Part shown: positions 3,788 through 54,446 of the stretch, piece by piece
How positions within the stretch are numbered: position 1 is the stretch's first letter
Layout of the letters: each line of letters begins with the position of its first letter
Assembly: GCA_913040915.1 (NCBI GenBank)
Contig: CAJWHW010000008.1
Location: 9,808-73,807, forward strand
DNA length: 64,000 nucleotides
Source: an uncultured Fidelibacterota bacterium
GTDB lineage: Bacteria; Fidelibacterota; Marinisomatia; Marinisomatales; UBA1611
Direction: 5' to 3'
Position numbers and translations under genes: made by a program
The notes under the pieces: model-generated
Told to the model about the DNA's origin: nothing
The model's input: the letters and a program-made list of their open reading frames with translations, nothing else
Databases searched by the model: none

Positions 3788-3828
3788 ATTGTTGAACTAA
3801 CTTATTTAAAATGAATTGTAAATAAAAA

Positions 3829-4215: not shown

Positions 4216-4252
4216 ATGTTAATTGGAATAAAATTAGAATATTTACCTTAGT

Positions 4253-4675: not shown

Positions 4676-4686
4676 AAATGTTACCT

Positions 4687-29030: not shown

Positions 29031-29164
29031 TTTCTTTCACGCCATTATGGTTAATTGAACCTAAAATACCAACGCCAATAATACTACTAGGAGATTTTCT
29101 ATTGTTTGAAAATGTTTTAATGAAAAAAAATTTTGACCAAGATTTGAATTAAAATAATGTATAA

Positions 29165-30625: not shown

Positions 30626-30751
30626 ATTGATCCATTTTTAATAATTTTTGATGAATAATTTAACTCTTAGATTCCAGTAGGGTTAAAACGTTAAATATTC
30701 TTTATCAATAATGCCATAACCTATTTCTTATCTAAGAAAATTCTAATTCAT

Positions 30752-31834: not shown

Positions 31835-31837
31835 TTT

Positions 31838-32443: not shown

Positions 32444-33867
32444 AAAATTTTATTCTTCTGTCCTCAATTTCAATATTGTTTTCAGATGAGCTAACATTTC
32501 AATTCAATGGATTCGTGGATTTTGCAAATATATCTCGTTTATCTGATAATTCACTAATTGATATACCTTACAGAATAGGCTCATTGAATTTTTCACAACA
32601 TTCCAATAATATTTCATTAAATGGAAACTTCTCATTAGAATATCAAATTCGGAGTGACACCTATTTTTTAGAATCAAAGGATCCTCAGGATTTTAGATGG
32701 GACATGCGGGAATTATATGGTACAATCTCCAGTGACCAGTTTGAATTTAGATTTGGAAAACAAATCCACTCCTGGGGAAGTGTTGATGTGAATAGTCCAG
32801 TAGATAATGCCAGCGCATTTGATTATTATTATATCTTCTTCCTTGGGCAGGAAAGGAAAATGGCTACTTTTTCTACTATTATCGATTATTATATCGGCAA
32901 TTTAAAAATGAATATTGTTTTTTCCCCAATACATACTACAAATCGTATTCCGCTTGGTGATGATGAATTTCCAATCACCTTACCAATTTATCCTAAAGAA
33001 AGCCAAATATTACCGATTTCAAAACTCCCATTGGAGAGTGGGTTTCATGGGACATATTCATTTGGGTTAGGTGATATTTCTGCATCTTACTTTTCAGGTT
33101 ATGATCGAGTGTTTAATTTTACAGGTGTTAATGTTTATAGTAATAATAGCCAAACTATTTTTTCACCTCCTGATTTAGTATTTGGATATAGAAAAACAAA
33201 TGTTTTCGGTTTTGGATTCACTTTTTTGAATCCAAGTTTTATCCTAAGAGTAGACACTGGTCATTTCAAAACTAAAGATTTAAATGATATAATTGAACGT
33301 CCCTACTCTAACTCAGCCTTAGCAACTATTTATGATACTTTAGTTTTTAGTTATCCACTTAAAGAGAGAGCAAGCTATAGACAATCTACCATCCAAATTG
33401 AAACTGAACTTCCATTCAAGATTAATTTTATCGGTCAAATATTCATCCATGAAAAATCATCCTTCTCATCAGATACTCTGCCAGATGTGGAAATTGATAT
33501 CCCAGGATTTGAATATGATCCGGAAACTATGACACCTGAAAATTTTTTTACACCGGGTATGGGAGTCCCATTAGCTATTTTGACTGAAAAAGCAGCAATT
33601 TTTGTTATTTATAGAACATTATTTGATGAACAATTGAAACTATCTATGACATCCATGCTTGATTTAAAAGAATATCAAGGAGTTTCAGGAATTCCCGGGA
33701 ATTTGACCGAATACAAGTTGGAATATAATATTACGCAAGATCTACTTGGCCTTTTAGGTGTTACAAAAGTTCAGGGATCAGATGACCATCCCGAAGGTGA
33801 AGAATACCAATTCAATTCGATGGAAGATTTTTCTCATTTAAGATTTGAATTAAAATATTATTTCTAA
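32440..33867 (+). CDS. Outer-membrane beta-barrel protein (DUF1302-like), paralog of 24137..25345
   Basis: RELY...GKQIHSWG..D.NSPVDN, DYYY.F.LG.ERK, PGMG.P, MEDFSH...LKYYF shared with the paralog. Confidence 0.7.
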   Translation: MKNFILLSSISILFSDELTFQFNGFVDFANISRLSDNSLIDIPYRIGSLNFSQHSNNISLNGNFSLEYQIRSDTYFLESKDPQDFRWDMRELYGTISSDQFEFRFGKQIHSWGSVDVNSPVDNASAFDYYYIFFLGQERKMATFSTIIDYYIGNLKMNIVFSPIHTTNRIPLGDDEFPITLPIYPKESQILPISKLPLESGFHGTYSFGLGDISASYFSGYDRVFNFTGVNVYSNNSQTIFSPPDLVFGYRKTNVFGFGFTFLNPSFILRVDTGHFKTKDLNDIIERPYSNSALATIYDTLVFSYPLKERASYRQSTIQIETELPFKINFIGQIFIHEKSSFSSDTLPDVEIDIPGFEYDPETMTPENFFTPGMGVPLAILTEKAAIFVIYRTLFDEQLKLSMTSMLDLKEYQGVSGIPGNLTEYKLEYNITQDLLGLLGVTKVQGSDDHPEGEEYQFNSMEDFSHLRFELKYYF

Positions 33868-33879
33868 AAAGAAAATTTA

Positions 33880-34845
33880 TTGAAAATAAAAATTACAGGG
33901 GTAGGGCTCTATCTCCCTCCAAAAATAGAAACTGCAGCAGATATTTCGGAGAAAATTGGAAAATCTGTTGATTGGATCATTGAAAAAACTGGAGTGATTG
34001 AGCGACGGGTATCCGAAATAGATGTTGACCAAATGGGAGCATTAGCCGCAAAGAATGCTTTAGGAAAGGGCGGAAAACCCGACTTAATCATAAATGCTTC
34101 CGGTGTACCAAAACAAACCATACCTGATACAGCTGCATTCTACCAAAAAGAACTTGGTTATAAAGGAATTCCATCTTTCAGTATTCATTGTACCTGCCTA
34201 TCTTTTATTACAGCCTTACACACAGCAGCTTCACTGATACATTCCCGTTCCTATAAACGTATACTAATTATTTCTTCAGACCGTGGAACGATAGGAAGAA
34301 ATTTTAACGAACCGGAAAGTGCATCGCTTTTAGGTGATGGGGCTGCTGCCGTAGTAGTGGAACGAACGTTAAAAGATGAAACCGGTAAACTCATTTACTT
34401 TGATATGAAAACCTTTCCTAAATATGCTAATCTAACTGAGGTTCGAGGGGGAGGTACAAATAAGCATCCACAGGACCCAGAAACAACACTAGCAGACAAT
34501 TTGTTTACCATGAATGGACCTGCAGTATATAAAATCGCCAGAAAAGAAGTATATCGAATGATGCTAAAAACAATGAAAGAAACAGAGTTAAAAAGAGAAA
34601 ATGTGGATTGGATAATTCCACATCAAGCTTCCGGCAAGGCAGTAGATGCCTATATTTTAGCAGGTGGATTTTCCGAACAAAAGGTGGTAAATATAATTAC
34701 AAAATTTGGAAATTGCGTAGCTGCTTCTGTACCTATGGCTTTTGCAACTGCGGTAGAAGATGGACGTATAAAACGTGGTGATCTTATATTGTTTATTGGA
34801 ACAGGTGCTGGTTTGAGTGTAGCGTGTGCTTTAATACGATATTAA
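33880..34845 (+). CDS. fabH: 3-oxoacyl-ACP synthase III family protein
   Basis: Triad Cys (HCTCLSF), His (PHQAS), Asn (FGNCVAAS); GDGAAA; GTGAG. Confidence 0.85.
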   Translation: MKIKITGVGLYLPPKIETAADISEKIGKSVDWIIEKTGVIERRVSEIDVDQMGALAAKNALGKGGKPDLIINASGVPKQTIPDTAAFYQKELGYKGIPSFSIHCTCLSFITALHTAASLIHSRSYKRILIISSDRGTIGRNFNEPESASLLGDGAAAVVVERTLKDETGKLIYFDMKTFPKYANLTEVRGGGTNKHPQDPETTLADNLFTMNGPAVYKIARKEVYRMMLKTMKETELKRENVDWIIPHQASGKAVDAYILAGGFSEQKVVNIITKFGNCVAASVPMAFATAVEDGRIKRGDLILFIGTGAGLSVACALIRY

Positions 34846-35910
34846 TTACTTTACCAGAATTAATTTTTTGATCTCCATATCAATCCCATCATTAATCTTT
34901 AAAAAATATAAGCCAGATGAATATTCAGATCCATCCCAGTGGATTTGATACTTGCCAGTTTTATATATTCTATTTTTTGAAATAACATCTACTTCATTTC
35001 CCAGCAAATCAAATATGCTGATAAATAATCTCCGATCATATGGAATAAACAGATCAAGTATTACCTTATGATTAAATGGATTTGGATAAGGCTGCGAAAG
35101 TTTATACTGATAAGGCAAGCCATTTTTAATTAGTGAAACATTTTCACACTCTTGTGGTGTATAAACAGGAAATGAATAATAAAATTGATCCAGACTCAAT
35201 TCAAAATGTTCACTTTCCACTATACAGGAATCTATATTCTCACACAGTATATTTCCCCCAATGGCAAAAAAAGGATAACCACCATTGTCATTATTGTCCC
35301 AATCCAAATTCATATCACAAAAACAGTTTGGTAGTGATTCAAGATTATTATTAAATAACCAGAGATAGATTAGGTTATTCAAGTTGCAAATCGATTCTGG
35401 TAAACTCCCTATTTTATTATATCCCAGATCTAGAAAATATAAACCATCTAAATTCCCAAGACTGTCAGGTAGATTTTCTAAAATATTATTATTCATATGA
35501 AAAGATTGTAGACCAATCATATCAGAAAAAGTTTCAGGCAATGTTGAAATTCTATTCCATTCAAGATAAAGAGAAGCAAGACTTGTCCAATTCCCAATAT
35601 TTTCAGGCAAAACAAAAATTGTATCATTAACACCTGAACTGTTTCCATAATTTCCAGCAACTAAAAATCTAAGTCGACCATTAAACCAAGTCTGAGTCCC
35701 TAATGCTAATGGAGAATCATACTCTAGGTTATTTTTTATGATAATAGAATCCAGTACTTCAACATCTGAATCATAAAAGCATGTATCACCAGCAAGGATT
35801 GTTACGTTCAAAGGTAAATTGGGATAATAAGTATAAGCACTGTCACATTGTCCAGTTAAACTTTGAGTAACGAAGGATATTATAAATGAAATGGTGATCT
35901 TTTTAATCAT
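34846..35910 (-). CDS. Secreted leucine-rich repeat protein with T9SS-type C-terminal domain
   Basis: LxxLxLxxNxIxxLP repeats; YPNPFN...SSGLYF...KKLILVK. Confidence 0.8.
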   Translation of the reverse strand: MIKKITISFIISFVTQSLTGQCDSAYTYYPNLPLNVTILAGDTCFYDSDVEVLDSIIIKNNLEYDSPLALGTQTWFNGRLRFLVAGNYGNSSGVNDTIFVLPENIGNWTSLASLYLEWNRISTLPETFSDMIGLQSFHMNNNILENLPDSLGNLDGLYFLDLGYNKIGSLPESICNLNNLIYLWLFNNNLESLPNCFCDMNLDWDNNDNGGYPFFAIGGNILCENIDSCIVESEHFELSLDQFYYSFPVYTPQECENVSLIKNGLPYQYKLSQPYPNPFNHKVILDLFIPYDRRLFISIFDLLGNEVDVISKNRIYKTGKYQIHWDGSEYSSGLYFLKINDGIDMEIKKLILVK

Positions 35911-38003
35911 TTTATTAGAATGACTTTACGTGTTTGCGACTGATTTCCACATGTTAAATGAATGAAGTATATACCAGAAGGTTGATTTACAGCATTCCAT
36001 GTATATGAGTAATGGTTTGATGATAGATTATCATTCAATATTGATTTGATAACCTGTCCTGATATGTTAAATACTTCCAGTGAATTTCTTTGTTGAGGTT
36101 CTAAAATATCAAATTGAATTGTTGTTACTGGATTGAAAGGGTTTGGAAAAGGTTCATATAATTGGAATACTGCAGTTATCGTTCCACCTTCATTTCCTAA
36201 TAAATTCGAGTGTCCTTCAATTTGAATTAGCTTTTGATTCTCAGGATGATGAATAGGTGTAATAATAAGTTCAATATTATTTATATCATCTGATTCCGGA
36301 ATCTCTCCTGTAAATGAAAGTGTCTGGGTTGCATCTGGTGAAAGTGTAATTATCTCTTCTGATGATTCAAACCAACCTGCTTGATCAGTAAAAGTATATT
36401 GATATTCAACCTCATATGGTCCTTCATTTATTAACTCAAAAGTTATTAAAGACGATCCCGGGTTTAAATAAACACCCGACTGTCCATTAAAATCTGTCAA
36501 GTCACTAACTATAACGCTAAAGGCAGCAGGAAATATTCCCGGAATACGATGGGCTCGGTAAACCGCACCATTAGGAAGACTTAAATTATAATTTGCTTCC
36601 CAAACTATTTGCCCATTAGTATTAACCTCAAGGCTTCGCCCACCACCTCCTATGGTAGTAACCAATACATTTCCATTTTGAAGTTTTTGGGCATTCCCGG
36701 AAGCAAAACCAAATAGATCATTTGGCAAGTCATAAGTCCAAACCAATTCTGCATTATTTGCATTTACTGAAATTTCAATCGCCCTGGACTGAGGATCATT
36801 AGTATTTCTGAAAATTTCAGATAGATTTCCATTGTCAAAGGTAAGAAGATTACCATTATCTAAAATTTGTACACTATGTTGGAAACTAAACCCTATATCT
36901 GTTCCAAGAGTTACATCCCCGGAAGGCATATCATGTCCCAAATTCCAAATGATGTTACCAGAAGGATAATCAATTTTTGTGATCCGGGATAAATGACGCG
37001 TAGATATGTAAATTGCATTTTCAGATTCTTCAAATATTACCGCATTTACATGTGTCCAGTCATAATGCAAATCAACATAAGCTTGATTCCAGGTGCCTCC
37101 ATATTGATCAAAATCGATCATATTAAAATGATCGAACACATTCCATTCCCACACTACATCACCAGTCTCAGCATCCCATTCAACTAGTTTATCACCGATC
37201 CATGGAAATTCGATTGTTACACCATCAGCTTGAAAACCAAGCCCTTGGAATAAATAAGTCCAGTCTCCTATTGGTATATAGCCAAGTGAACTCGTTTCAA
37301 TAATTCCAAGATAATTTCCATTAGGTAATTGAATTAAATCATGGTGCAAGAATTCATTATTGGGTTCCTCCCAAATAGTTTCACCTAGAAATGTGAATTC
37401 CTTGCCGGGTAAATTATTCTCTGTTCCAGAAGCCAAAGAGCAGCCAAATACATCACCACTTTCACTCGTACTGTAATAAACTAAATTCTCAGCTCCCGAA
37501 TTCCATATCTCTTTCCCTGTCTTATCTACTGCAGCTGAAAAATAATTAAAGAAGGCTCCAAAAACAGTGATTCCATCCTGAATTAGGTTTTCATTGATAA
37601 TAGTAGTGGTAGTCTCAGAAATAGGTGACCCTGTAGAAAAATTATATGCTGGACTCCAATCTCCTGTCATATTTGACACATTAAGCGGACGGATGCGCCA
37701 GTGATAGGTTTTATCCCATTCCAAATCATTCTTTTCAATATAGATTAAAGAATAATCAATAACCTGCACTACTATACTTGAAAAACTGGGATTTTCTGAA
37801 ACTTGTAACTCATACCCTATTGCTTCCGGAATTTGTTTCCATTCAAATATCACATGGAGATGGTTTAATTCTGAATTGTTTTCTGGAAGAATCAATCCTG
37901 CAAATAAATACTGAACCCAAAAAATTATTAACCTAAGATAGTTTTTATAAAATTTCAAAATTATTAATATAAAGATGTAATGAATTAAAAATAAATTAAT
38001 CAA
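35907..38003 (-). CDS. Secreted ASST-like protein with FN3/Ig-like domains and T9SS-type C-terminal domain (start uncertain)
   Basis: HHDL, WEWNVFDH, WTHVN, STRH, FQH, FDNG, VYRA; FPNPFNP...SGIYF...KVILIK. Confidence 0.75.
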   Translation of the reverse strand: MINLFLIHYIFILIILKFYKNYLRLIIFWVQYLFAGLILPENNSELNHLHVIFEWKQIPEAIGYELQVSENPSFSSIVVQVIDYSLIYIEKNDLEWDKTYHWRIRPLNVSNMTGDWSPAYNFSTGSPISETTTTIINENLIQDGITVFGAFFNYFSAAVDKTGKEIWNSGAENLVYYSTSESGDVFGCSLASGTENNLPGKEFTFLGETIWEEPNNEFLHHDLIQLPNGNYLGIIETSSLGYIPIGDWTYLFQGLGFQADGVTIEFPWIGDKLVEWDAETGDVVWEWNVFDHFNMIDFDQYGGTWNQAYVDLHYDWTHVNAVIFEESENAIYISTRHLSRITKIDYPSGNIIWNLGHDMPSGDVTLGTDIGFSFQHSVQILDNGNLLTFDNGNLSEIFRNTNDPQSRAIEISVNANNAELVWTYDLPNDLFGFASGNAQKLQNGNVLVTTIGGGGRSLEVNTNGQIVWEANYNLSLPNGAVYRAHRIPGIFPAAFSVIVSDLTDFNGQSGVYLNPGSSLITFELINEGPYEVEYQYTFTDQAGWFESSEEIITLSPDATQTLSFTGEIPESDDINNIELIITPIHHPENQKLIQIEGHSNLLGNEGGTITAVFQLYEPFPNPFNPVTTIQFDILEPQQRNSLEVFNISGQVIKSILNDNLSSNHYSYTWNAVNQPSGIYFIHLTCGNQSQTRKVILIK

Positions 38004-38770
38004 ATTTTTATTAAGAAAGATTCTGAGAAAATCTCATCTCTAAGGCCAATGTCTGGCTTGAAAGATTGAATCACCATGATAGTTTTATTCCCATTTTGAT
38101 TCGTCATTATCATCCTAAATGGTGTTATAAAATTATTTTCTTCAACAAATTTGTCAAGGATTAGAGTTTTTTCCTTATTGGATTCACTAGAATAAAACTC
38201 AATCTTAATTATTTGCCATTTTTTTGTGCTTACCCATAGTTTCCTCGCAAAATAAGAACTTGCTTTTTTCGGCCAAGCCATTATTACTTTACATTGACTA
38301 CCTTGAAAATGTTCTGTACCTAGAAGGGACAAACTATCAAGACCTAATTTTCGACTTTCAAGATCTTCATAAATAAAATCAGTACCCATGAAAGATTTTG
38401 TTTTTTCTTTAGCTTTAACTCGCTTTGCAGTTTTTAATTTTGGTAAGAAAAACCATTGATCAGTTTTCCCATTACTATATACCCAACTCAACAGGCCCGT
38501 ATCCTTAATTTTTAGTGGTTTATGGAACCGAACTAAGGATTTAGACTGAAATTTCCCTGATGAATAATTTTTATTGAAACGAGTGAATTCCCTAACCTTG
38601 ATTTTTTCCTTTCCATGTTTTATTCGAACAATCTCAAGTTTAATCTCTGTTATTGATGAATTTGGTTTAGGTGCATCATATACCATTTTCATAATTTCCT
38701 CAGCGGTGTATTCTTGAGCAAAGACTTGAATGCCAAGCATAGAAAAAAACATAAAATTAATTTTCATCAT
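38000..38770 (-). CDS. LolA-like outer membrane lipoprotein-sorting protein (second copy)
   Basis: DQWFFLPKLKTAKRV, FMGTDFIYEDL; signal peptide. Confidence 0.85.
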   Translation of the reverse strand: MMKINFMFFSMLGIQVFAQEYTAEEIMKMVYDAPKPNSSITEIKLEIVRIKHGKEKIKVREFTRFNKNYSSGKFQSKSLVRFHKPLKIKDTGLLSWVYSNGKTDQWFFLPKLKTAKRVKAKEKTKSFMGTDFIYEDLESRKLGLDSLSLLGTEHFQGSQCKVIMAWPKKASSYFARKLWVSTKKWQIIKIEFYSSESNKEKTLILDKFVEENNFITPFRMIMTNQNGNKTIMVIQSFKPDIGLRDEIFSESFLIKI

Positions 38771-39065
38771 TATGTCTTATAAAAAGTAGTGATATAGGAG
38801 TGAATAATATTGCTAATATAGAACAAATTAAATAATCCTTCTGATATCTTAGTTCAAAATAACCTGCGACTTGAAGACAAATAAAAACATATCCAATAAA
38901 AATAATATCAAAATAATGATTTAAAAGATATGTAAAAATTTCTCCAGTTGTCCAATTCTTAAATGTATCGATAGTTTCAGCCGAGCCTAGTCCGTAAATA
39001 ATTAAGAGGCAACTAATAAGCAAAAGCATGCCACTAAGCATCTTATCTTGTTTTACAGTCTTCAT
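38757..39065 (-). CDS. Small hypothetical membrane protein
   Basis: Three hydrophobic segments; overlaps both neighbours in the operon. Confidence 0.6.
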   Translation of the reverse strand: MKTVKQDKMLSGMLLLISCLLIIYGLGSAETIDTFKNWTTGEIFTYLLNHYFDIIFIGYVFICLQVAGYFELRYQKDYLICSILAILFTPISLLFIRHNDEN

Positions 39066-41368
39066 TTATATAAAAACTTAGGATTAATCAAACTGGTTAA
39101 TGCCGGTAATGTTGCCAATGCTCCGAATAAACAAAATGATATTGACCCCATAACCAGTATACCAAAAATTTGAACGGGAACAAATACAGAGAATAATAAT
39201 GCAGAAAAACCAACCACAACGGATAGACCATTAAATAAAATACCTTTTCCTGAAATTTTCATTGTGTTGGCTATAGCTTCATCCAAAGAATCACCATCTT
39301 GGATATGGTCTCGTAAATGCCATAAAAAATGAACAGTATAATCCACTCCAACACCAACTAATATCCCAGTTAGCATTGATGTGGTCATGTTTAATGGAAT
39401 ATTCATGTACCCCATCAAACCAAACATCATAATAACAGATACCACCATTGGCAATGTTGCAAGTAACCCACCTGTTATCGAACGGAAAACTAACGTCATA
39501 ATAATTAAAATGATAAAGATAGAGAAACACAAACTGAATAATTGACCCTTTAAAACCATTCTCGTTAGGATACCCAATAGTGTTGCACCACCTGTTAATT
39601 TTATAGGCGATTCATCATAGAAATTCGCATTGATAAACTGTTCTGTATCATCAACAATTTCAGCAATAGTAATTGTTTGCACCTCCTTTAACCTCAAAAA
39701 AACCTGAGTAAATGACGGCTCTTCAATATCATCCAGCATTATATCAAAATCATCAGCTTCACTAGCAATGGAATATAAAAACATATATTGCACAATCAGG
39801 TCTCTGTCATCAGGAATAGTTTCAAATTTTGGATCGCCACCATGAAATCCTGAATTCATATTTTTGATCACATCCACAATGGAGAAAGATTTGGTGACAA
39901 TATCATGCGTAGTTTTAATATGGTCAGTGAGCATCTCAATATTTTGAAGTGTTTTAGGATTATAAATATCCCCTTCCACAAGAATATGAATTTGAGTGGA
40001 CCCACCAAACGCTTCACTGATTTTTGTATTAGCAATTCTTAATCTTGAATTCGGTGGAAAATAATGGTCAGGATTTGTATCAACTTTAAGATCATTGATC
40101 CCTAAGGAAAGCCAAAAACCTATGATCCCTAATAATGTCAATATCGGCACCTTAAATCTTGTAAATGCTCTTCCTAATACGACTAGAAATTTATTGATTT
40201 TTGATATACCTGATCTCTTTGTCAAATATGTGGGCCTCGGGACTAAGACTAACACGGATGGGATAAGAAAAACACTCAATAAAAAAGCTACTAGAATACC
40301 AAATGAAATTAACAAACTCATTTCTCTAACCCTTGGTAATGCACTTGATAAAAGGCTTAAAAAACTTATCATAGTTGTAAGCCCTGCTAAGAATATAGGA
40401 ACACCTAGTTTCCTAATTGTTTTCCGTAATATTTTACCACGATTTGCATCCGGTTCCATTATCGTGAATTCATAATAATGGGAAATTATATGAATTCCAT
40501 AATTGTTTGCTATAGCAATAAGCATAACTGGAATCATTGTACCGATAAATGCTACAGACATATCCATCAATCCCATAATCCCAAATGTCCAAAGGATTGA
40601 AAATCCAACTACAAAAAATGGTAGAAATACTCCGGTCCAACTTCGAAAAGAAATCATGAGAAGCAATAAACAGAGGCCAAGTGCTATGGGCGTGAATACA
40701 CGTAAATCCCGCTGCATATTCTCGATAACTGTTGCACGAGTAATTGGCAAGCTGGAAACGTAAAAGTTTTCAGGGCCACTAAATCGATTAACAAGTTCAA
40801 ATATCTTAGATCTGAACTCAAACTCATCATATTCAAAAGATGTGATAATTTGACCAATGAAACATAATGTTCTTAAATCTTCTGAAACCAGGTTTCCAAC
40901 CATTCTAGATTTTTTTATCCTTTTAAATAAGTTTTCCTGGTTTGCAGAGTCTCTAGGAATGTCAATTAATAGTGGTTCAATTTCGAAACCACCATCATCC
41001 GGTAAAATATGTTTCTGCGTAAAGATAGAAGTGACGTTCCCTAAAATATCAAAAGACTCCAATGAGTCCTGAAAAGAAGATAATTTTTCTAAAGTCTCAG
41101 GGATAAATAAGCTGTCAGATTCTACCGCTATGATAATAATATCACTTCCTGAGAACATTTCATCTACTTTTTCCATCGAATGAACGATCTCATGATCTCT
41201 AGGAAGCATGGATTTAACACTGGGGTCCATTTCCAAATCAAAGATTTTCCACCCAAGGATTATTGAAATTAATATTACTCCTGCAATGATTGATCGCGGG
41301 TAATGGGTATCAAAATCAAATAAATATCTAGAAAATTTTCTGAGATTCATAACATTAAAGACTAACAA
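39062..41368 (-). CDS. MMPL/RND family transporter (second copy; start may be the ATG at 41350)
   Basis: IANNYGIH, LAGLTT, GVGVDYTVH; two TM repeats. Confidence 0.9.
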   Translation of the reverse strand: MLVFNVMNLRKFSRYLFDFDTHYPRSIIAGVILISIILGWKIFDLEMDPSVKSMLPRDHEIVHSMEKVDEMFSGSDIIIIAVESDSLFIPETLEKLSSFQDSLESFDILGNVTSIFTQKHILPDDGGFEIEPLLIDIPRDSANQENLFKRIKKSRMVGNLVSEDLRTLCFIGQIITSFEYDEFEFRSKIFELVNRFSGPENFYVSSLPITRATVIENMQRDLRVFTPIALGLCLLLLMISFRSWTGVFLPFFVVGFSILWTFGIMGLMDMSVAFIGTMIPVMLIAIANNYGIHIISHYYEFTIMEPDANRGKILRKTIRKLGVPIFLAGLTTMISFLSLLSSALPRVREMSLLISFGILVAFLLSVFLIPSVLVLVPRPTYLTKRSGISKINKFLVVLGRAFTRFKVPILTLLGIIGFWLSLGINDLKVDTNPDHYFPPNSRLRIANTKISEAFGGSTQIHILVEGDIYNPKTLQNIEMLTDHIKTTHDIVTKSFSIVDVIKNMNSGFHGGDPKFETIPDDRDLIVQYMFLYSIASEADDFDIMLDDIEEPSFTQVFLRLKEVQTITIAEIVDDTEQFINANFYDESPIKLTGGATLLGILTRMVLKGQLFSLCFSIFIILIIMTLVFRSITGGLLATLPMVVSVIMMFGLMGYMNIPLNMTTSMLTGILVGVGVDYTVHFLWHLRDHIQDGDSLDEAIANTMKISGKGILFNGLSVVVGFSALLFSVFVPVQIFGILVMGSISFCLFGALATLPALTSLINPKFLYK

Positions 41369-46187: not shown

Positions 46188-46292
46188 GTAATCTTTATTA
46201 TAATATTAAGATATAATATTGAATTTAATTAAAAATTTTCTTTTTGAATTATTTTTATCAATGCATATTCTGTTAGTCAAATTAATTATTAT

Positions 46293-47708
46293 ATGTTAAA
46301 ACAATTAGAATTAGAACTAATCCAGGATATTCATAAAAAAATCGAATCTTTATTGATTGATTCTAATAGAAAAGTGAATCCAGCTTCATCTGTCGAGATT
46401 TTGGAAAAAGAAATTGATATCTTTTTAGGCCAATCTTCTGAACTGGATGAGATAAGAAATCTTATAGATCAATATCTCTATCATTCTGTAAACACAGGGA
46501 ATCCTAATTTTTATAATCAGTTATTTTCTGGGTTTACACCCACAGGGTATTTGGGTGAACTAATCACAGCAATTACAAATAGTTCCATGTATACCTTTGA
46601 GATGAGTCCTGTTTCTACATTAATTGAGAATGAGTTAATCAATAAAATGTGTAGTTATGTTGGTTATAAAAATGGGTTTGGGACCTTTGTCACAGGCGGG
46701 AGCAATGGAAATTTAGTCGGTATGCTCGCAGGCCTTTTTTCCCATAGCCCCGAGTCTAAGCTTAATGGACTTTCATCTGAAAAAAAATTCACTGCTTTTG
46801 TATCTGACGAGTCTCATTATTCATTTATGAAAGCAGGACATCAATTGGGAATTGGAACCAATCAAATACGTAGAGTTCCCTGTGATAGCAACGGAAGAAT
46901 GGATATCCAACAATTAATAAACCTAATTCAATTATCTATCGAGGCAGATGAAAAGCCCTTTTTCGTTGGAGCCACTGCTGGAACAACCGTCCGGGGGGCC
47001 TTTGATCCAATTGGAGAAATAGCTGATGTATGTAAATCTTTTGGTTTGTGGTTTCATATAGATGGATCATGGGGCGGATCTGTATTACTTTCTTCAAAAC
47101 ATAAAAATTTGATTGATGGGTCGAAGTATTCAGATTCATTTACGTGGTGTGCACATAAAATGATGGGGATGCCATTAGTATGTACAGTATCATTATTTAA
47201 TGATAAAGACATTTTATTAAAAATCAATGATGTTAAAGGTACAGATTATTTATTTCATAGTAAAGATCATCAAGAATTGGATTTAGGTCTATATTCTTTA
47301 CAATGCGGTCGAAGAGTGGATGTACTGAAATTATGGCTTACATGGAAATACTTTGGTGATAATGGTTACGAAGAACGGATTAATCATTTATTTAATATGG
47401 CTAAATATGCATCATATAAAGTGGAAACCAGTGCAAATCTTAGACTTCTTTCACCTACAATTTCATTAAATATATGTTTTCAAGTGCAAACTGAACGGGT
47501 TAAGCAAAAACAGTGGAATGAGCTTACAATTTCCGTTAGGGAATCCTTATGTAAAGATGGGGATGTAATGGTTAACTACGCAGAGATTGGGAATAAGTTC
47601 TGTATTAGACTTGTAACGGTTAATTTCGATCTAACTGAAAAACATTTAGACTTTTTCTTTAATAAAGTTGAAGAAATGATTGATAAAGAAATTCCAAATT
47701 TTTCATGA
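46293..47708 (+). CDS. Group II PLP-dependent decarboxylase with CSAD/ADC-type specificity motif
   Basis: NQLFSG...NSSMYTFE, SHYS, ATAGTT, HIDGSWGG, AHK (PLP Lys), QCGRR. Confidence 0.85.
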   Translation: MLKQLELELIQDIHKKIESLLIDSNRKVNPASSVEILEKEIDIFLGQSSELDEIRNLIDQYLYHSVNTGNPNFYNQLFSGFTPTGYLGELITAITNSSMYTFEMSPVSTLIENELINKMCSYVGYKNGFGTFVTGGSNGNLVGMLAGLFSHSPESKLNGLSSEKKFTAFVSDESHYSFMKAGHQLGIGTNQIRRVPCDSNGRMDIQQLINLIQLSIEADEKPFFVGATAGTTVRGAFDPIGEIADVCKSFGLWFHIDGSWGGSVLLSSKHKNLIDGSKYSDSFTWCAHKMMGMPLVCTVSLFNDKDILLKINDVKGTDYLFHSKDHQELDLGLYSLQCGRRVDVLKLWLTWKYFGDNGYEERINHLFNMAKYASYKVETSANLRLLSPTISLNICFQVQTERVKQKQWNELTISVRESLCKDGDVMVNYAEIGNKFCIRLVTVNFDLTEKHLDFFFNKVEEMIDKEIPNFS

Positions 47709-48871
47709 TAAAAAATTCTTTTTTTGCAGATGAAAAATCTGTTGTCTTTCTATTTATTAATGGACCGCATCATGTCTATCATGCTATCATACCAGCTTTG
47801 ACATTTGCAAAAAATAATCCAGATTTAAGAACAATCATAGTAAGCGGAAATAGAATAAACTTAAACATAATTACTTATTATCACCTAAGAATGGGAGAAC
47901 CGAAATGCGAAATCGTTAGCTTGCCCTTACCCTGGCGATATAAAATCCTAAATTATAAGAATAAGTTGTATCGTCATCCATCTAGGCAGTGGGAAAAAAT
48001 TCACCCTTTCTTAAAAGAATCTTTGGCTGTGGTATCTACTTCACATGACGCACCCCATTATTTTGCAAAATATAAGATAACTAAACCAAAACTCTTTTAT
48101 TTATTCCATGGAACAGGTACACGTGAATATGGATTTGAATTAAATTTAAACCAATTTGATTTATTAATGATTCCGGGTCCTTACCATAAAAAAAGGCTTA
48201 ACAAAGATGCCAGTATATCTAAATCCAAACTAATACAAGTCGGATATACAAAAAATGATACTTTCCAATACTCTGACTTTAAAGAACAAAAATTATTTCC
48301 AAAAAATCAAACTACATTTTATTACAATCCCCATTGGGATGTAGAACTATCATCTTTACCAAAATGGGGAAGATATATTCTGGATTATTTTAAAAACCAT
48401 TCTCAATTTAATTTAATTTTTGCGCCACATCCTTTAGTAAAACATTACAATACAAAATATAATTTGGATCTCAATTATTCTTCTTTTACATCTGATAACA
48501 TTTTAATTGATTTTGATAGTCAAAAAAACATGAATGGATTTTATTGTATTCATGCTGACATTTATCTAGGAGATGTAAGCAGTATGCTGTTTGAATGGAT
48601 CAATTATAAACCTCGTCCCTGTATATTCATAAATACAAATAATATTGAATGGGAAAATGATGAAAATTATTCAAATTGGAGAATTGGACATGTAATCAAT
48701 TCCTTGGATGAGTTTAATGATATAATCGGAATTGCAATTGGATCAAAAACAAAATTCGCTGAACAAATTTCTTATAAAAATAAAATGATTTACAAAGGGG
48801 TAAAATCACCATCCGAAATTGCAGCAAATGCCATTACATCTGCTGTTTATGAACCAAATATTATACCTTGA
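47705..48871 (+). CDS. CDP-glycerol glycerophosphotransferase (TagF/TagB-like) family protein
   Basis: FHG, GY.K.D, YNPHW, APHP, GDVSSMLFEW...RPCIF. Confidence 0.65.
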   Translation: MIKNSFFADEKSVVFLFINGPHHVYHAIIPALTFAKNNPDLRTIIVSGNRINLNIITYYHLRMGEPKCEIVSLPLPWRYKILNYKNKLYRHPSRQWEKIHPFLKESLAVVSTSHDAPHYFAKYKITKPKLFYLFHGTGTREYGFELNLNQFDLLMIPGPYHKKRLNKDASISKSKLIQVGYTKNDTFQYSDFKEQKLFPKNQTTFYYNPHWDVELSSLPKWGRYILDYFKNHSQFNLIFAPHPLVKHYNTKYNLDLNYSSFTSDNILIDFDSQKNMNGFYCIHADIYLGDVSSMLFEWINYKPRPCIFINTNNIEWENDENYSNWRIGHVINSLDEFNDIIGIAIGSKTKFAEQISYKNKMIYKGVKSPSEIAANAITSAVYEPNIIP

Positions 48872-49923
48872 AGAAAACGAAAATTCATTTTATCGGGCGT
48901 AAACAAGGCGTTGGATTTAGACGATGGCGATATAGCAGTCTAGAAAACCGCAGAAAATTTGAATATGAAGGGTTCTTAGACGTTGAAAATATTCAACAAG
49001 TTCGATTGATCCAGAATGCGGATGTTGTATGGTGTCGTGTACGCCCGGAGCACACATCTGATTTGCAAAGAGAAATTATAGATAATCAAATCAAAAAAAT
49101 GCGGGGTAAAATACCAATTATTAATGATATCGAAATTTTCGATAATTATGATTGTAAAGATATTTCATTTGACCTTTGGTCAAAAGCTAATATCGCTTGT
49201 CCTAATTATATCAAAATTGATATCAGAAAAGAAAAAAATAATCTTTCTAAGAAAATTCAAAAAATTCAAGAATTTATATCTACACATGGGAAAATGTTTC
49301 TTAGAACAAATAATGAGACAGCAGCAAATGGAATATATTCGTTAGATGAGAGTTCAACCGAAATAGAAATTAAAGATGCTCTTAAAGCATTAATAAATCG
49401 ATGCGAATCATTTCATAGTACTAGGAAAGCGACAAATATTGTCGGAGTGAAATTTATTAGATCAAAAAATGAAAAGAGTTATCAAGATTTATATCGTGTA
49501 CACGTGTTATTCGGAAAAGTTCTTTCTTTTTATAGTGTTACAAGTCCTTTAGATATTTTTCATAATATTAATATGAGCGATATTGACATAGACAGATTTA
49601 TACAACTAAATCATGATTTATGTAAAAAAATGTCGAAACTGGAAAATAAAGTTCTAGATGCTGCTAAAGCACTTGATTGTAATCTGGGTGCTGTTGAATT
49701 TTTTTTGCAGGATGATAAACCCATATTTTTAGAACTGAATCCAATGTGGGGAGGTCATGCCAGCAAATTTGGATTTGGAAATAATAAGATGCAGAATTAT
49801 TTAAGAGAGAATCGTGACCAATTAATCAAATTGATTCCGAATATTTATGATTTTATGAATCGGAGGATTTATTATAAAAATCTATTCCAGTGGGTCCATA
49901 GATACTGTTCTACCAATCTTTAA
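48868..49923 (+). CDS. ATP-grasp fold protein
   Basis: DCK, FLRTN, YRVHVLFG, GAVEF...FLELNPMWG (E-x-N terminal motif). Confidence 0.6.
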   Translation: MKKTKIHFIGRKQGVGFRRWRYSSLENRRKFEYEGFLDVENIQQVRLIQNADVVWCRVRPEHTSDLQREIIDNQIKKMRGKIPIINDIEIFDNYDCKDISFDLWSKANIACPNYIKIDIRKEKNNLSKKIQKIQEFISTHGKMFLRTNNETAANGIYSLDESSTEIEIKDALKALINRCESFHSTRKATNIVGVKFIRSKNEKSYQDLYRVHVLFGKVLSFYSVTSPLDIFHNINMSDIDIDRFIQLNHDLCKKMSKLENKVLDAAKALDCNLGAVEFFLQDDKPIFLELNPMWGGHASKFGFGNNKMQNYLRENRDQLIKLIPNIYDFMNRRIYYKNLFQWVHRYCSTNL

Positions 49924-50389
49924 ATAAAATATAATCTTTGCCGGATACATGACAATTATAACACATCGATTCTGCACCATTACTACCAGCCAATTCTCCA
50001 TCTGGATTATAATTCGCCCAAAACCAATTATTATGATCTGGGTCATATCCTTCAATTTTTTTCATGATTGTAATTTTATTCAAGGACTGGCCACTTGAAT
50101 CTAAATATCCTTCCTTAACAAGTATACTTCCCGCAGGAAGTATTGCATTTTCTAAAGTATCAGGATTACTAAAATAATTAGAAACGGTTTCATTTAACCA
50201 GATCTGGATATAATCTCCATGAGGCGAATTAGCAGATTTTATCCCTGAAAACGAAGAATCCTGCACCCAGTTCTGATAACCTTTAATTTCTTGCCAAATT
50301 TCATTTGCTATTTTTTGGTCATCACTTAAATCTCCATCCTCACAACCAAATAGCATAAGGAATAAAATTAATAAATATTTTTTAATCAT
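49910..50389 (-). CDS. Cytochrome P460-family lipoprotein
   Basis: LFG-C lipobox; P.GSILVKE, MKK..GYDP...NWFW, C-terminal CYNCH. Confidence 0.75.
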   Translation of the reverse strand: MIKKYLLILFLMLFGCEDGDLSDDQKIANEIWQEIKGYQNWVQDSSFSGIKSANSPHGDYIQIWLNETVSNYFSNPDTLENAILPAGSILVKEGYLDSSGQSLNKITIMKKIEGYDPDHNNWFWANYNPDGELAGSNGAESMCYNCHVSGKDYILFKDW

Positions 50390-50488: not shown

Positions 50489-52432
50489 ATGAATTCTATC
50501 CTCTGGAAACCACAACACTTCGAAAAATCAAAAATGGTAAAATTTATGAACCAGATAAATGAATCATATAATCTGAAAATGCAATCTTATGATGAATTGT
50601 ATAATTGGTCCATAAATTATATTCCCGAGTTCTGGTCCCATGTATGGGACGCATGTGAAATAAAACATTCAACTCCGTACACTTCAATTGTGGATGACAT
50701 TAAAAAAATGCCGGGGGCGACATGGTTTGAAGGAGCTCGTTTAAATTTTGCAGAAAATTTGCTTCGTTTTCAAGATCATCACATAGCCATTCACTTCAAA
50801 AGTGAATGCAAACCTGTAAGGTCCTTAACCTATAAAAAATTGTTTACAGAAGTAGAAAAAGTTGCCCATTCTATGAGAGAATCTGGTATTCAAAAAGGTG
50901 ACCGAGTAGCTGGGTTTATTCCCAATATGCCAGAAGCAATAATTGCTATGTTGGCCACTGCATCCATTGGAGCAATTTGGAGTTCATCATCACCAGATTT
51001 TGGCATTAAGGGCGTTTTAGATCGTTTTTCACAAATTGAGCCAAAACTCATATTTGCTGCTAATGGATATTATTACAATGGGAAATCCTTTGACTCTTTA
51101 GAAAAGCTAAAGGGAATTCTATCGCATCTTCCAAGTGTGCAAAAAGTTGTTGTGATTGAATATACAGATAATGAAACAAATATGAATAATATACCCAATG
51201 GGATCCATTATTCTGATTTTATTTCAAAATCACCTTATCCACTAAAGTTTGAGCAAATGCCCTTTGATCATCCACTTTATATTATGTATTCATCAGGCAC
51301 TACTGGATTACCTAAATCTATTGTTCATTCTGCAGGTGGAACCCTTATTCAGCACATGAAAGAATTAAAATTACATTGTGATTTAGAGAGGCAAGACTCT
51401 ATTTATTATTTTACTACCTGTGGATGGATGATGTGGAATTGGCTTGTATCTTCATTGGCCGTAGGCGCTACTGTAGTCCTTTATGATGGATCACCATTCT
51501 TTCCAGATGGAAACGCTATGTGGCAATTAGCTGATGAACTAGATATTACAGTTTTTGGAACAAGTGCAAAATTTATTGATGCATGTAAAGAAGCAAATAT
51601 TCAACCTATACAGTCAGCTGATTTAACCAATTTAAGGACTATCCTTTCAACGGGTTCACCTTTAGCAGATGAAAGTTTTGATTATATTTATGAAAATGTA
51701 AAAAATGATATTCTTCTAGGATCTATATCTGGAGGGACTGATATAATATCATGCTTCGCCTTAGCCAGCCCAATGCTACCAGTTACTAGAGGAGAGTTAC
51801 AATGTCGGGGGCTTGGGATGGATGTTCATGCCTTTGATTCAGCAGGTCACTCTATGATTAACGAAAAAGGCGAATTGGTTTGCACTTCTGCATTTCCTTC
51901 CATGCCAATATATTTCTGGAATGATCCTGATTATTCTAAATATCAAAGTGCATATTTCAATACATATCCCGGTATCTGGAATCATGGTGACTTCATACGC
52001 ATTTCTGAATATGGTACAATTAAAATATTTGGCAGAAGTGATGCCACTCTGAACCCTGGTGGTGTCAGGATTGGTACAGCAGAATTATATCAGGTTGTAG
52101 AATCCATGGAAAGCATTGAAGACAGTTTGGTGATTGGTCAAGAATGGAATGGTGATCAACGAGTTATTTTATTTTTAAAGATGTATAAGGGCTTTGAATT
52201 GAATAAAAACATAGTTCAAGATATCAAAAATCAAATTCGGACAAATTGCTCACCAAGACATGTGCCTGAAAAAATATTGGAAACAAAAGGGATTCCCTAT
52301 ACAATCAATCTAAAAAAAGTAGAAATAGCTGTGAAGAAAATTATAGAGGGTGAAAAAGTTACAAACCTAGATGCCTTATTAAACCCTGAAGTATTAGAAT
52401 ATTATAAAAACATCCCAGAATTAAATTCTTAA
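50489..52432 (+). CDS. Acetoacetate--CoA ligase
   Basis: WFEGARLNFAENLL, YSSGTTGLPK, TTCGWMMWNWL, SISGGTD, GRSDATLNPGGVRIGT. Confidence 0.92.
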   Translation: MNSILWKPQHFEKSKMVKFMNQINESYNLKMQSYDELYNWSINYIPEFWSHVWDACEIKHSTPYTSIVDDIKKMPGATWFEGARLNFAENLLRFQDHHIAIHFKSECKPVRSLTYKKLFTEVEKVAHSMRESGIQKGDRVAGFIPNMPEAIIAMLATASIGAIWSSSSPDFGIKGVLDRFSQIEPKLIFAANGYYYNGKSFDSLEKLKGILSHLPSVQKVVVIEYTDNETNMNNIPNGIHYSDFISKSPYPLKFEQMPFDHPLYIMYSSGTTGLPKSIVHSAGGTLIQHMKELKLHCDLERQDSIYYFTTCGWMMWNWLVSSLAVGATVVLYDGSPFFPDGNAMWQLADELDITVFGTSAKFIDACKEANIQPIQSADLTNLRTILSTGSPLADESFDYIYENVKNDILLGSISGGTDIISCFALASPMLPVTRGELQCRGLGMDVHAFDSAGHSMINEKGELVCTSAFPSMPIYFWNDPDYSKYQSAYFNTYPGIWNHGDFIRISEYGTIKIFGRSDATLNPGGVRIGTAELYQVVESMESIEDSLVIGQEWNGDQRVILFLKMYKGFELNKNIVQDIKNQIRTNCSPRHVPEKILETKGIPYTINLKKVEIAVKKIIEGEKVTNLDALLNPEVLEYYKNIPELNS

Positions 52433-53430
52433 TCTAAATTTCCTAATACACTTAGTAAATCAACCACTCGATTTGAATATCCCCATTCATTATCATACCA
52501 ATTCAAAGTTTTGACAAAATTACCTTCCACAACTCTTGTAAATGGTGCATCAAAGATTGAAGAATGGGGGTTCCCAATAATATCAGTTGAAACAACAGGT
52601 AACATTGAATAATCTAATACATTTTTAAGAGGACCATTATCTGCTGCTTCACGAACTGCATCATTGACCTGCTCCACAGTCACATCTTGATTTACCCTTA
52701 CATTGAAATCAACTACTGAGCCATCCGGGACAGGGACTCGCATAGCAATTCCATCCAGTTTCCCATTTAGTTCGGGTAAAACTTTACCAACGGCACGTGC
52801 TGCACCCGTTGTTGTCGGGATAACGTTTTCTGCTGCAGCTCTGGAGCGACGCCAATCTGAATGTGGCACATCTGCCAACCGTTGGTCATTTGTATAGGCA
52901 TGAATTGTATTGATAACTCCTAATTCAATACCAAAAGCATCATTAAGGACTTTCGCCATAGGTGCCAGGCAATTTGTTGTACATGAAGCATTAGAAACTA
53001 TTCTATGTTCATTTTTGAGTCCGTTTTCATTTACACCTAATACAACGGTATAATCAATTTCATCCTTTGCAGGTACAGTTAAAACAACCCGCTTAGCACC
53101 AGCTGATAAATGATTTTCCAGTTGTGCCTTTTGCCGAAATATTCCAGTGGACTCAATAACAAAATCTATACCCATCTCTGCCCAAGGCAATGCAGTCGGA
53201 TCACGCTCTGCTAATAATTTAACAGACTGACTTTCTGTTTTCATGAAATCCCCTTCTAAGGAAACCTGTTCCGGAAATCGACCCATAACTGTATCATATT
53301 TTAATAAATATGTTAAGGCAGCTTTATCAAAAATATCATTGATAGCAACAATTTCAATATCTTCTTTAGAATTTAAAATACGAAAAACTGATCGGCCAAT
53401 TCGTCCAAATCCATTAATAGCAACTCTCAT
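52429..53430 (-). CDS. gap: Type I glyceraldehyde-3-phosphate dehydrogenase
   Basis: NGFGRIG, SNASCTTNCLAP, HAYT, WYDNEWG. Confidence 0.95.
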   Translation of the reverse strand: MRVAINGFGRIGRSVFRILNSKEDIEIVAINDIFDKAALTYLLKYDTVMGRFPEQVSLEGDFMKTESQSVKLLAERDPTALPWAEMGIDFVIESTGIFRQKAQLENHLSAGAKRVVLTVPAKDEIDYTVVLGVNENGLKNEHRIVSNASCTTNCLAPMAKVLNDAFGIELGVINTIHAYTNDQRLADVPHSDWRRSRAAAENVIPTTTGAARAVGKVLPELNGKLDGIAMRVPVPDGSVVDFNVRVNQDVTVEQVNDAVREAADNGPLKNVLDYSMLPVVSTDIIGNPHSSIFDAPFTRVVEGNFVKTLNWYDNEWGYSNRVVDLLSVLGNLD

Positions 53431-54446
53431 TTTTCATCTCCTATATCAGCATACAGGTCAATCGTTTCTAAAATTCTTTTGGAGAATCCCCAACCATTAT
53501 CATACCAGCATATAGTTTTTAATAATGCATCCTTAGTAATCATGGTTGCTTTACTGTCAAAGATCATTGTTTCATCCCTGCCTATTACATCACTGGATAC
53601 GATTGGATCATCTGTATAACCAACGATACCTTTCAATGTAGTTTCAGAAAATTGTTTCACCATATTATTTGCTTCATCTACTGATGGCATAGTATTTAAC
53701 TCAGTAGTCAAATCCACACATGATCCATTGGGTACTGGTACATTGAATGCGATTCCATCCAACTTACCTTTGAATTCCGGCATAATTTGTTCAACAATTG
53801 ATGGTGCATTCGTAGAGTTAGGTATAATATTTTCTACAGCAGATCGACTTCTGCGTAAATCTATTCCAACAGCATCTGCTAATGGCTGATCTGAAGTGTA
53901 AGCGTGTACGGTAGTCATCATTGCTCGATTTAAACCAAAAGTCTCATCCAACATTTTTACCATTAGGGCTAACACTTGAGTTGTAGAAGATGTTGTGGAA
54001 ATAATTTTATCAGTTGCTTTGATGGAAGACTCATTTACTCCTGGAATGACATAACGGTCAATGTCATCATCTGGGTCTCTTGTGGTAAATACCCGTTTAG
54101 CGCCGGCACTCAAATGTAAATCTAATTCTGAACGTTTTAGAAACTTACCTGTTGCATCAATAACACAATCTATATTATATGCATCCCAGGGTATTCCTCC
54201 CGGTTCTCCTCCACTGATAACGCGTACACGTTGGTCTCTAACAACTAGATGATTGCCATCTAAGTGAACAGGGTCATCCATAGCACCATGAATTGAATCA
54301 CGCGATAATAGATAATGTAATGTTTCAGCAGATCCAATATCACTGATAGCAACAAAGTTATAATTAGGGTTTTTATAGCCTAATCGAAAAATATTTCGCC
54401 CTATTCTGCCAAAACCGAATATTGCAATATTTACAGTATTAGTCAT
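53427..54446 (-). CDS. GAPDH paralog lacking the catalytic cysteine
   Basis: GFGRIG, HAYT and WYDN are intact, but the active site reads STTSSTTQVLA. Confidence 0.85.
   Translation of the reverse strand: MTNTVNIAIFGFGRIGRNIFRLGYKNPNYNFVAISDIGSAETLHYLLSRDSIHGAMDDPVHLDGNHLVVRDQRVRVISGGEPGGIPWDAYNIDCVIDATGKFLKRSELDLHLSAGAKRVFTTRDPDDDIDRYVIPGVNESSIKATDKIISTTSSTTQVLALMVKMLDETFGLNRAMMTTVHAYTSDQPLADAVGIDLRRSRSAVENIIPNSTNAPSIVEQIMPEFKGKLDGIAFNVPVPNGSCVDLTTELNTMPSVDEANNMVKQFSETTLKGIVGYTDDPIVSSDVIGRDETMIFDSKATMITKDALLKTICWYDNGWGFSKRILETIDLYADIGDEK

Follow-up and report, generated by a model that had tools for sequence, protein, structure and literature searches.

A conserved operon encoding a predicted CSAD-type decarboxylase, a TagF-like transferase, and an ATP-grasp enzyme in marine Marinimicrobia: a candidate system for attaching an amine to a cell-envelope unit

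What could a marine bacterium do with an animal-type decarboxylase whose gene shares an operon with those for a TagF-like transferase and an ATP-grasp enzyme? The question is raised by positions 46293 to 49923 of a 64-kb stretch (the window) of contig CAJWHW010000008.1, from an uncultured member of the Marinimicrobia (SAR406) whose assembly comprises 1.86 Mb, is 85% complete, and includes the window as contig C8. This segment carries three plus-strand open reading frames (ORFs), referred to here as genes 1 to 3 or the trio (Table 1), with adjacent ORFs overlapping by 4 bases at both junctions (ATGA and TTGA). An earlier note on this DNA had proposed that the trio makes (hypo)taurine or beta-alanine and ligates it to a surface polymer. 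The comparisons described below reveal a conserved module that is restricted, within the collections searched, to a single family, favor a sulfur-containing amine as the probable product of gene 1, and leave attachment of that amine to a cell-envelope unit as a possible, still tentative, function.

Conservation and distribution of the trio

The genome sample consisted of the window's own genome and 40 relatives, 24 from the same family and 16 from other families of the order. The ATP-grasp gene was detected in 8 of the 24 same-family genomes and in none of the 16 genomes from other families. In the same eight genomes, the genes for the decarboxylase (53 to 59% identity) and the transferase (43 to 46%) lie immediately upstream in the same order, on one contig in seven of them and split over two contig ends in G006. 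A pattern scan covering one genome per GTDB species returned 18 loci with the ATP-grasp gene, 13 at 49 to 58% identity (those with informative titles are Marinimicrobia), three at 36 to 39%, and two, both from Saccharospirillum, at 25 to 28%. Searching metagenomes with the transferase family left 80 loci, with neighbors counted only where the contig had room for them. Among the 31 loci with transferase homologs of at least 41% identity, the decarboxylase was found upstream in 19 of 20 cases and the ATP-grasp gene downstream in 19 of 19; the corresponding numbers for the 49 loci below 41% identity were 0 of 32 and 1 of 39, the latter a borderline truncated case. The single exception in the first group, L043 (positions 3809 to 4951), encodes a transferase homolog of 45% identity with an opposite-strand PETase-like gene upstream in place of the decarboxylase and no ATP-grasp match within 650 bases downstream; the module may have decayed or been rearranged there.

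The flanks of the trio vary from genome to genome and include genes for a phosphofructokinase (PFK) and an acetyl-CoA synthetase (the window and G011), tyrosine catabolism (G004 and G018), a PETase-like protein (G015), and a cellulase (G017). Because the gene order is kept while the flanks differ, the trio appears to travel as a unit, and the three genes behave as one selectable unit. Their association is specific to the clade with 49 to 70% identity, and within the collections searched the operon is confined to one family of marine Marinimicrobia. The synteny on which the earlier proposal depended therefore holds, in these eight family genomes and in nearly all close metagenome loci.

The decarboxylase

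The product of gene 1 matches the Pfam family PF00282 (Pyridoxal_deC) with an E value of 5.5e-70. Compared with solved structures, it scores highest against the mouse and human cysteine sulfinic acid decarboxylases (CSADs) (6zek and 2jis, 303 and 302 bits), followed by GADL1 (292), GAD67 (282), and GAD65 (270), while bacterial decarboxylases in the same search reach at most 186 bits, the score of the 2,4-diaminobutyrate (DABA) decarboxylase 8zpi. In NCBIfam the top match, to the DABA decarboxylase RhbB, stays at 175 bits where the cut-off is 900; gene 1 is therefore not an RhbB equivalog.

The stretch NQLF...NSSMYTFE yields F78, S98, and Y100, the F-x19-S-x-Y pattern read in the earlier note, and HMMER aligns it on the NQLF...NTSQYTYE stretch of CSAD, so that F/S/Y matches the mouse and human enzymes (positions that we take to be F94/S114/Y116 in the human numbering). 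The same columns read Y/S/Y in GADL1 and S/N/F in GAD67, which agrees with the distinction between animal CSAD and GAD that had been drawn from the sequence. The pyridoxal phosphate (PLP) lysine, K289, aligns on the lysine of the CSAD HK motif and is kept in all 120 best homologs, among which the triad is FSY in 76, YSY in 19, WSY in 10, FSA in 7, FSS in 4, and something else in the remaining 4. Among the trio-linked decarboxylases (52 to 61% identity), F/S/Y and the PLP lysine are kept in 38 of 38 copies, a count that includes six loci duplicating genome loci; the motif is thus no coincidence. Like animal CSAD, gene 1 encodes a predicted group II PLP decarboxylase, and by these scores it is closer to CSAD than to other decarboxylase subfamilies. 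It differs in being part of an operon with a transferase and a ligase, an arrangement unreported for CSAD in the literature searched. According to PMC8153620, three active-site positions set the selectivity of GAD and CSAD, and a bacterial CSAD, that of Synechococcus sp. PCC 7335, has been expressed (PMC8153620, citing Agnello 2013).

Further CSAD-like decarboxylases (P0280 to P0298), at 52 to 53% identity, carry the GADL1-type Y/S/Y triad, and one of them is labeled as coming from a Candidatus Poseidoniia archaeon. Judging from these homologs, the family appears to be common to marine bacteria and Marine Group II archaea.

The transferase

The AF2 model of the gene 2 product, built from a 40-sequence alignment, has a pLDDT of 92.3. 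Foldseek ranked UDP-GlcNAc 2-epimerases and TagF about equal (approximately 1e-10), and a VIA-align comparison with 48,161 chains placed TagF (3l7i) on top, with a Z score of 23.4 and a root mean square deviation (rmsd) of 3.8 over 328 aligned residues. It was followed by TarL with CDP-ribitol (8va1, Z 22.7) and a TagF-like capsule multienzyme with cytidine monophosphate (CMP) (8a0c, Z 22.3), a further capsule polymerase, 8qoy, reaching Z 21.2. The protein matches the Pfam family Glyphos_transf (PF04464) above its gathering score, and residues H135, H210, and H242, which may correspond to the TagF catalytic histidines, are invariant in the family alignment. The model thus points to a glycosyltransferase B (GT-B) fold closest to TagF and TarL, and the TagF-like character assigned earlier to this gene is borne out at that level. 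Its differences from the polymerases are considerable: it is just 13 to 16% identical to them, neither the sequence nor the family profile matches TagF among solved structures, the NCBIfam TarF model gives 27 bits, far under its cut-off, and the single-domain protein is devoid of the extra domains of the polymerases.

Homologs of gene 2 at 27 to 37% identity (P0174, P0185, P0197, and P0212) are found in cultured Acetobacteraceae (Gluconacetobacter and Komagataeibacter), Zymomonas, and Erythrobacter. Gluconobacter makes a taurine-amidated ornithine lipid.

The ATP-grasp enzyme

Gene 3 has no family assignment in Pfam or NCBIfam, and its 93 homologs all come from metagenomes or metagenome-assembled genomes, none with a precomputed Pfam ATP-grasp domain; no relative was found in viral contigs. 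A 34-sequence profile nevertheless retrieved from the PDB only ATP-grasp chains, weakly (best E value, 0.031), over the region GAiEFF...FLELNP. There E289 and N291 are invariant and E277 is conserved, in alignment with the motifs FLEINP and FIEVNP in MdnC and pyruvate carboxylase; the family has, in addition, invariant motifs of its own, RTNNET and ELNPMWGG. The AF2 model (pLDDT 89.7) was matched by Foldseek to Ddl, ArgX, LysX, RimK, and PurK at approximately 1e-11 with probability 1.00. In the VIA-align comparison, ArgX came first (Z 19.5, rmsd 3.3, 263 aligned residues), ahead of RimK (Z 18.4), LysX/ArgX (Z 17.5), DcsG (Z 17.4), and Ddl (Z 16.8), and all 50 entries listed were ATP-grasp-fold proteins. 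The model accordingly has the three-domain ATP-grasp fold, and the structure searches left this part of the earlier note standing. With LysX, ArgX, and RimK, the closest solved folds (Z 17.5 to 19.5 over 257 to 263 residues), gene 3 shares the aligned E-x-N Mg/ATP motif; it differs from them in its low identity (11 to 12%) and in its own motifs.

Wider families of the transferase and the ATP-grasp enzyme

For the distant transferase loci, 65 of the 116 listed neighboring ORFs, the nearest ones, were examined, and 13 to 14 of 20 loci proved to have at least one neighbor of the envelope or glycan type. These neighbors include TagD-like CTP_transf_like genes (L072, L073, and L081), a second Glyphos_transf gene (L072, L073, L076, L081, and L094), NTP_transf_3 or NTP_transferase genes (L065, L076, L083, L104, and L106), as well as GT1, GT9, GT92, Wzy_C, Polysacc_synt (flippase), and LptC genes. 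TagD-like cytidylyltransferases and a second Glyphos_transf gene thus adjoin distant relatives of gene 2, which adds to its likeness to TagF and TarL.

An exhaustive profile search with the ATP-grasp family returned 193 representative clusters. Two of the representatives, P0348 and P0349 (725 and 710 amino acids), are fusions of an N-terminal DUF6716 domain with a C-terminal ATP-grasp domain, and an hhalign comparison matches DUF6716 proteins to the C-terminal half of the gene 2 family (probability 87.6% with an E value of 3.5e-6 and 65.6% with an E value of 5.8e-5); the N-terminal part of another protein, P0359 (672 amino acids), is unrelated to that family. At L028, an ATP-grasp paralog of 37% identity directly follows a DUF6716 "putative glycosyltransferase" gene and is itself followed by genes for GT1, a GT29 sialyltransferase-like protein, an ABC exporter, a CMP-sugar-synthetase-type enzyme, and a sulfatase-family protein, while the Saccharospirillum paralogs sit among Stealth, GT2, Wzy_C, and GT4 genes. 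The ATP-grasp family is, then, repeatedly coupled to GT-B enzymes in other organisms. The paralogs at L029 and L030 have non-glycan contexts; the former (L029:1208-6655, 36% identity) comes after four kynurenine-pathway-like genes, for an amidohydrolase, a kynureninase, an FAD monooxygenase, and a cyclase.

The source and identity of the amine

Elsewhere in the host genome, two cysteine dioxygenase (CDO) genes of the CDO_I family score above the Pfam cut-off (G000:C58, L034:1489-2016:+, and G000:C2, L033:1435-1953:-) and would provide the partner of an animal-type CSAD. One of the encoded proteins gives 62 bits to mammalian CDO1 versus 34 bits to the CDO of Bacillus, and its YTRNL, IHxH, Cys, and SLHxY stretches, which we take to be the catalytic and cross-link residues, align with those of mammalian CDO1. 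The CDO homologs, like the cytochrome P460-like protein encoded next to the trio, match no NCBIfam family. By its gene content, the host should be able to make cysteine sulfinate, and CDO together with the CSAD-like gene would constitute an animal-style route from cysteine to hypotaurine in a marine bacterium.

The pantothenate genes are distributed differently. Neither PanD nor PanC turned up in the host genome, which is 85% complete; PanC is encoded in 0 of the 9 trio genomes (the window's own included) and in 4 of the 16 family genomes without the trio, and PanB was found in 1 of the 9 trio genomes, weakly, and not in the other 8. With animal-type CDO genes present and PanB, PanC, and PanD not found, the evidence leans toward hypotaurine or taurine rather than beta-alanine for coenzyme A (CoA) synthesis. 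As judged from the sequences, gene 1 probably supplies hypotaurine or taurine; beta-alanine is an unlikely product that still deserves attention, and any other amine is improbable.

Proposed function and its alternatives

In the proposed scheme, gene 1 would convert cysteine sulfinate, supplied by the CDOs of the host, into hypotaurine (or cysteate into taurine or, less likely, aspartate into beta-alanine). The gene 2 product would transfer a unit from a nucleotide-activated donor, releasing CMP by analogy, to a cell-envelope glycoconjugate or its lipid-linked precursor, and that of gene 3 would activate a carboxylate as an acyl phosphate and join it to the amine from gene 1. The outcome would be a decoration bearing a sulfinate or sulfonate (or a beta-alanyl group). 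To the reading that the trio produces an amine and couples it to a unit of the cell envelope, we would give somewhat less than an even chance. The fuller version, in which SAR406 bacteria make hypotaurine or taurine de novo by the animal-type CDO-CSAD route and then attach it covalently to an envelope unit via the ATP-grasp ligase and the TagF-like transferase, is more doubtful.

A precedent for the general logic exists in Campylobacter jejuni, where Cj1438, a GT2 domain fused to a C-terminal TupA-like ATP-grasp domain, amidates capsular glucuronate with ethanolamine or serinol (PMC11800379); a glycan-building transferase is combined there, as in the trio, with an ATP-grasp enzyme, which in Campylobacter forms an amide on a sugar carboxylate. 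The likeness extends to the occurrence of the gene 3 family in fusions with a glycosyltransferase-like domain. The partner of the ATP-grasp enzyme is, however, a GT-B protein (TagF-like or DUF6716) and not GT2. The amine of the trio would come from a group II CSAD-type decarboxylase, whereas that of Campylobacter is made by a different PLP decarboxylase acting on serine phosphate. The claim of the earlier note that it knew of no description of such a pathway must accordingly be narrowed, the general logic being known; a literature search, subscription-only papers not covered, yielded nothing on the trio itself, on taurine-amidated bacterial glycans, or on DUF6716.

Several observations weigh against envelope decoration. 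Genes for glycan, lipopolysaccharide (LPS), or capsule synthesis flank the trio in none of the seven other genomic contexts, and a Pfam sweep of the rest of the window revealed no polysaccharide, LPS, or capsule cluster. The contexts of the distant paralogs may not be transferable to the trio, because the genomes that carry distant ATP-grasp paralogs have no close homologs of genes 1 and 2. The Glyphos_transf match of gene 2 is weak (27.3 bits against a cut-off of 22.1) and covers only residues 142 to 339, and UDP-GlcNAc 2-epimerases follow at Z 21.3 to 21.8, approximately 2 Z units from TagF. TagD (TIGR01518), the cytidine diphosphate (CDP)-glycerol synthase, did not rise above its cut-off in the 85% complete genome (a 32.8-bit partial match versus 165), TarI-type enzymes being outside that search. 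For gene 3, no ATP-grasp Pfam family, TupA-like included, matches at E values of up to 0.1, so that its relation to Cj1438 is a likeness of logic and not membership; its nearest modeled folds are amino-acid and protein ligases (ArgX, LysX, and RimK), a structure that implies no sugar-amidating role, and ATP-grasp-fold inositol-phosphate kinases come in at Z 15.6 to 16.5. Finally, 7 of the 9 trio genomes have CDO, as do 10 of the 16 same-family genomes without the trio; its presence is compatible with a sulfur-containing amine and does not discriminate. Of the earlier proposal that (hypo)taurine or beta-alanine is ligated to a surface polymer, the gene identities, the F/S/Y reading, and the synteny are thus upheld, while the surface polymer has indirect support, from distant relatives of genes 2 and 3 in polysaccharide clusters, and finds no counterpart in flanking glycan genes or in TagD.

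The lack of glycan neighbors and of a CDP-glycerol source keeps alive the alternative that no polymer is decorated and that the product is small and soluble, serving for instance as an osmolyte, an antioxidant, or a signal. It could be, for example, a hypotaurine or taurine amide of an organic or sugar acid, to which gene 2 might contribute a phospho-alcohol or a glycosyl group. A self-contained module that moves among unrelated contexts would suit such a role, as would the ligation of small amino acids by the enzymes with folds nearest to gene 3. The three translations showed no obvious signal peptide or membrane feature on reading, no formal prediction having been made. Against this, the families of genes 2 and 3 at large are found in clusters for polysaccharides and the envelope, and fusions join the ATP-grasp family to a GT-B domain. 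To our knowledge, moreover, all TagF-like enzymes characterized to date act on polymer or lipid-linked acceptors, which agrees with the titles of the matching structures. On balance, a soluble product appears unlikely, yet it is a serious contender.

Slightly less likely is the same architecture with beta-alanine, made from aspartate, as the amine, in which case the ATP-grasp enzyme would activate the carboxylate of the partner or of beta-alanine itself and yield a beta-alanyl amide or ester on the acceptor. The score of GADL1 is close to that of CSAD (292 versus 303 bits), GADL1 uses aspartate as well as cysteine sulfinate (PMC5947694), and human CSAD, too, decarboxylates aspartate, slowly (PMC8153620). 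According to the earlier note, the F/S/Y triad is also that of insect aspartate 1-decarboxylase. On the other side, the triad is exactly the F/S/Y of CSAD and not the Y/S/Y of GADL1, the animal-type CDO genes of the host would supply cysteine sulfinate, and a classical use of beta-alanine seems to be missing, since searches of the 9 trio genomes gave no PanB in 8 and no PanC in any.

It is highly improbable that the ATP-grasp enzyme instead modifies a protein, as RimK, LysX, or ArgX does, by linking the amine to a carboxylate at the C terminus or on a side chain, with gene 2 acting on the same or another target. This idea draws on the ranking of the structural neighbors of gene 3 and on its RimK-like neighbors in the ESM Atlas. 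It is opposed by the low identity to those enzymes, by the glycosyltransferase-like character of the fusions and neighbors of the gene 3 family, and by the lack of a linked gene for a LysW-like carrier or a ribosomal protein at any locus examined. Replacement of a missing pantothenate synthesis, with the decarboxylase standing in for PanD and the ATP-grasp enzyme for PanC, would fit the missing PanD and PanC and the lack of the trio in all four family genomes that have PanC, but it was rejected as having a negligible probability, because PanB was not found in 8 of the 9 trio genomes, which leaves the ligation without its pantoate, PanC is equally missing from 12 of the 16 non-trio genomes, and no role is left for the TagF-like gene.

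Genomic setting and expression

The trio has a GC content of 0.29 to 0.35, the same as that of the flanking DNA, and no composition anomaly or island was found at it. Upstream, the PFK-family gene and a class-I fructose-bisphosphate aldolase gene lie on the minus strand; the P460-like gene, an acetyl-CoA-synthetase-like gene, and two tandem genes for glyceraldehyde-3-phosphate dehydrogenase (GAPDH) lie downstream. The ORF calls and the annotation of these neighbors agree with the order, overlaps, and AT-rich setting between pfp/fba and the gap region that the earlier note had described. Type IX secretion system (T9SS) sorting domains are present on genes neighboring the trio.

Table 1. Coordinates of the trio and of other features of the window
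Feature	Position	Strand	Length	Description
Gene 1 (P0001)	46293..47708	+	471 aa	CSAD-type group II PLP decarboxylase (predicted); F78/S98/Y100, PLP lysine K289
Gene 2 (P0002)	47705..48871	+	388 aa	TagF/TarL-like GT-B transferase (predicted)
Gene 3 (P0003)	48868..49923	+	351 aa	Divergent ATP-grasp enzyme of unclassified family (predicted); TTG start
Divergent intergenic region	46188..46292	.		AT-rich; separates the minus-strand PFK-family gene from gene 1; presumed promoter
Cytochrome P460-like gene	49910..50389	-		PF16694 at 2.9e-08; convergent with gene 3, 14-base overlap with gene 3 end
Tandem GAPDH genes	52429-54446	-	333 and 339 aa	4-base overlap
Export-type gene cluster (putative)	26715-41368			Two MMPL transporters, two LolA-like genes, two arylsulfotransferase-family genes (one T9SS-tailed), sulfotransferase, KAS III gene

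The promoter role of the divergent intergenic region is presumed only, because the scan for promoters and terminators was not above shuffled sequences (30 promoter sites versus 26.4 expected). One marine metatranscriptome run yielded two 151-nt contigs that match the operon with zero mismatches, at 48807-48957, spanning the junction of genes 2 and 3, and at 48954-49104. That run held 6% of the sampled words, and its contigs cover positions 48807 to 49104 alone and say nothing of the rest of the operon. Because finding such contigs in an RNA library is not proof that the region is transcribed, they are weak evidence for transcription across this junction. A complex prediction for the products of genes 2 and 3 gave a score of 0.02 versus a mark of 0.32, which counts neither for nor against their binding.

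The P460-like gene lies directly downstream of the ATP-grasp gene at 18 of the 29 non-duplicate trio loci with room for it (including L014, a reversed locus). This could reflect either an ancestral adjacency or a functional link, and its membership in the module is uncertain; that it might oxidize a sulfinate is pure speculation. The tandem GAPDH genes recur in G011, at 85% and 78% identity. The cluster at the bottom of Table 1 may represent an export system for a sulfated lipid or metabolite; it is unlinked to the trio in other genomes, except for an MMPL gene that is also found upstream in G011.

Implications

In the ocean interior, SAR406, or Marinimicrobia, rank with the most abundant of the uncultured bacteria. 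Taurine and hypotaurine circulate as major forms of dissolved organic sulfur in the sea, and their production is usually attributed to animals and algae. A conserved operon built around an animal-type CSAD in so abundant a phylum would indicate that a bacterium, too, can be the producer and that the amine has a new fate, covalent attachment. The three enzymes are testable by expression without cultivating the host. A function for the gene 3 family would annotate its 193 representative clusters, which have no Pfam or NCBIfam model and recur beside or fused to GT-B proteins, DUF6716 included. If the proposed reading is true, these bacteria would have a sulfinate- or sulfonate-decorated surface and would contribute taurine-type organosulfur of bacterial origin to marine organic matter.

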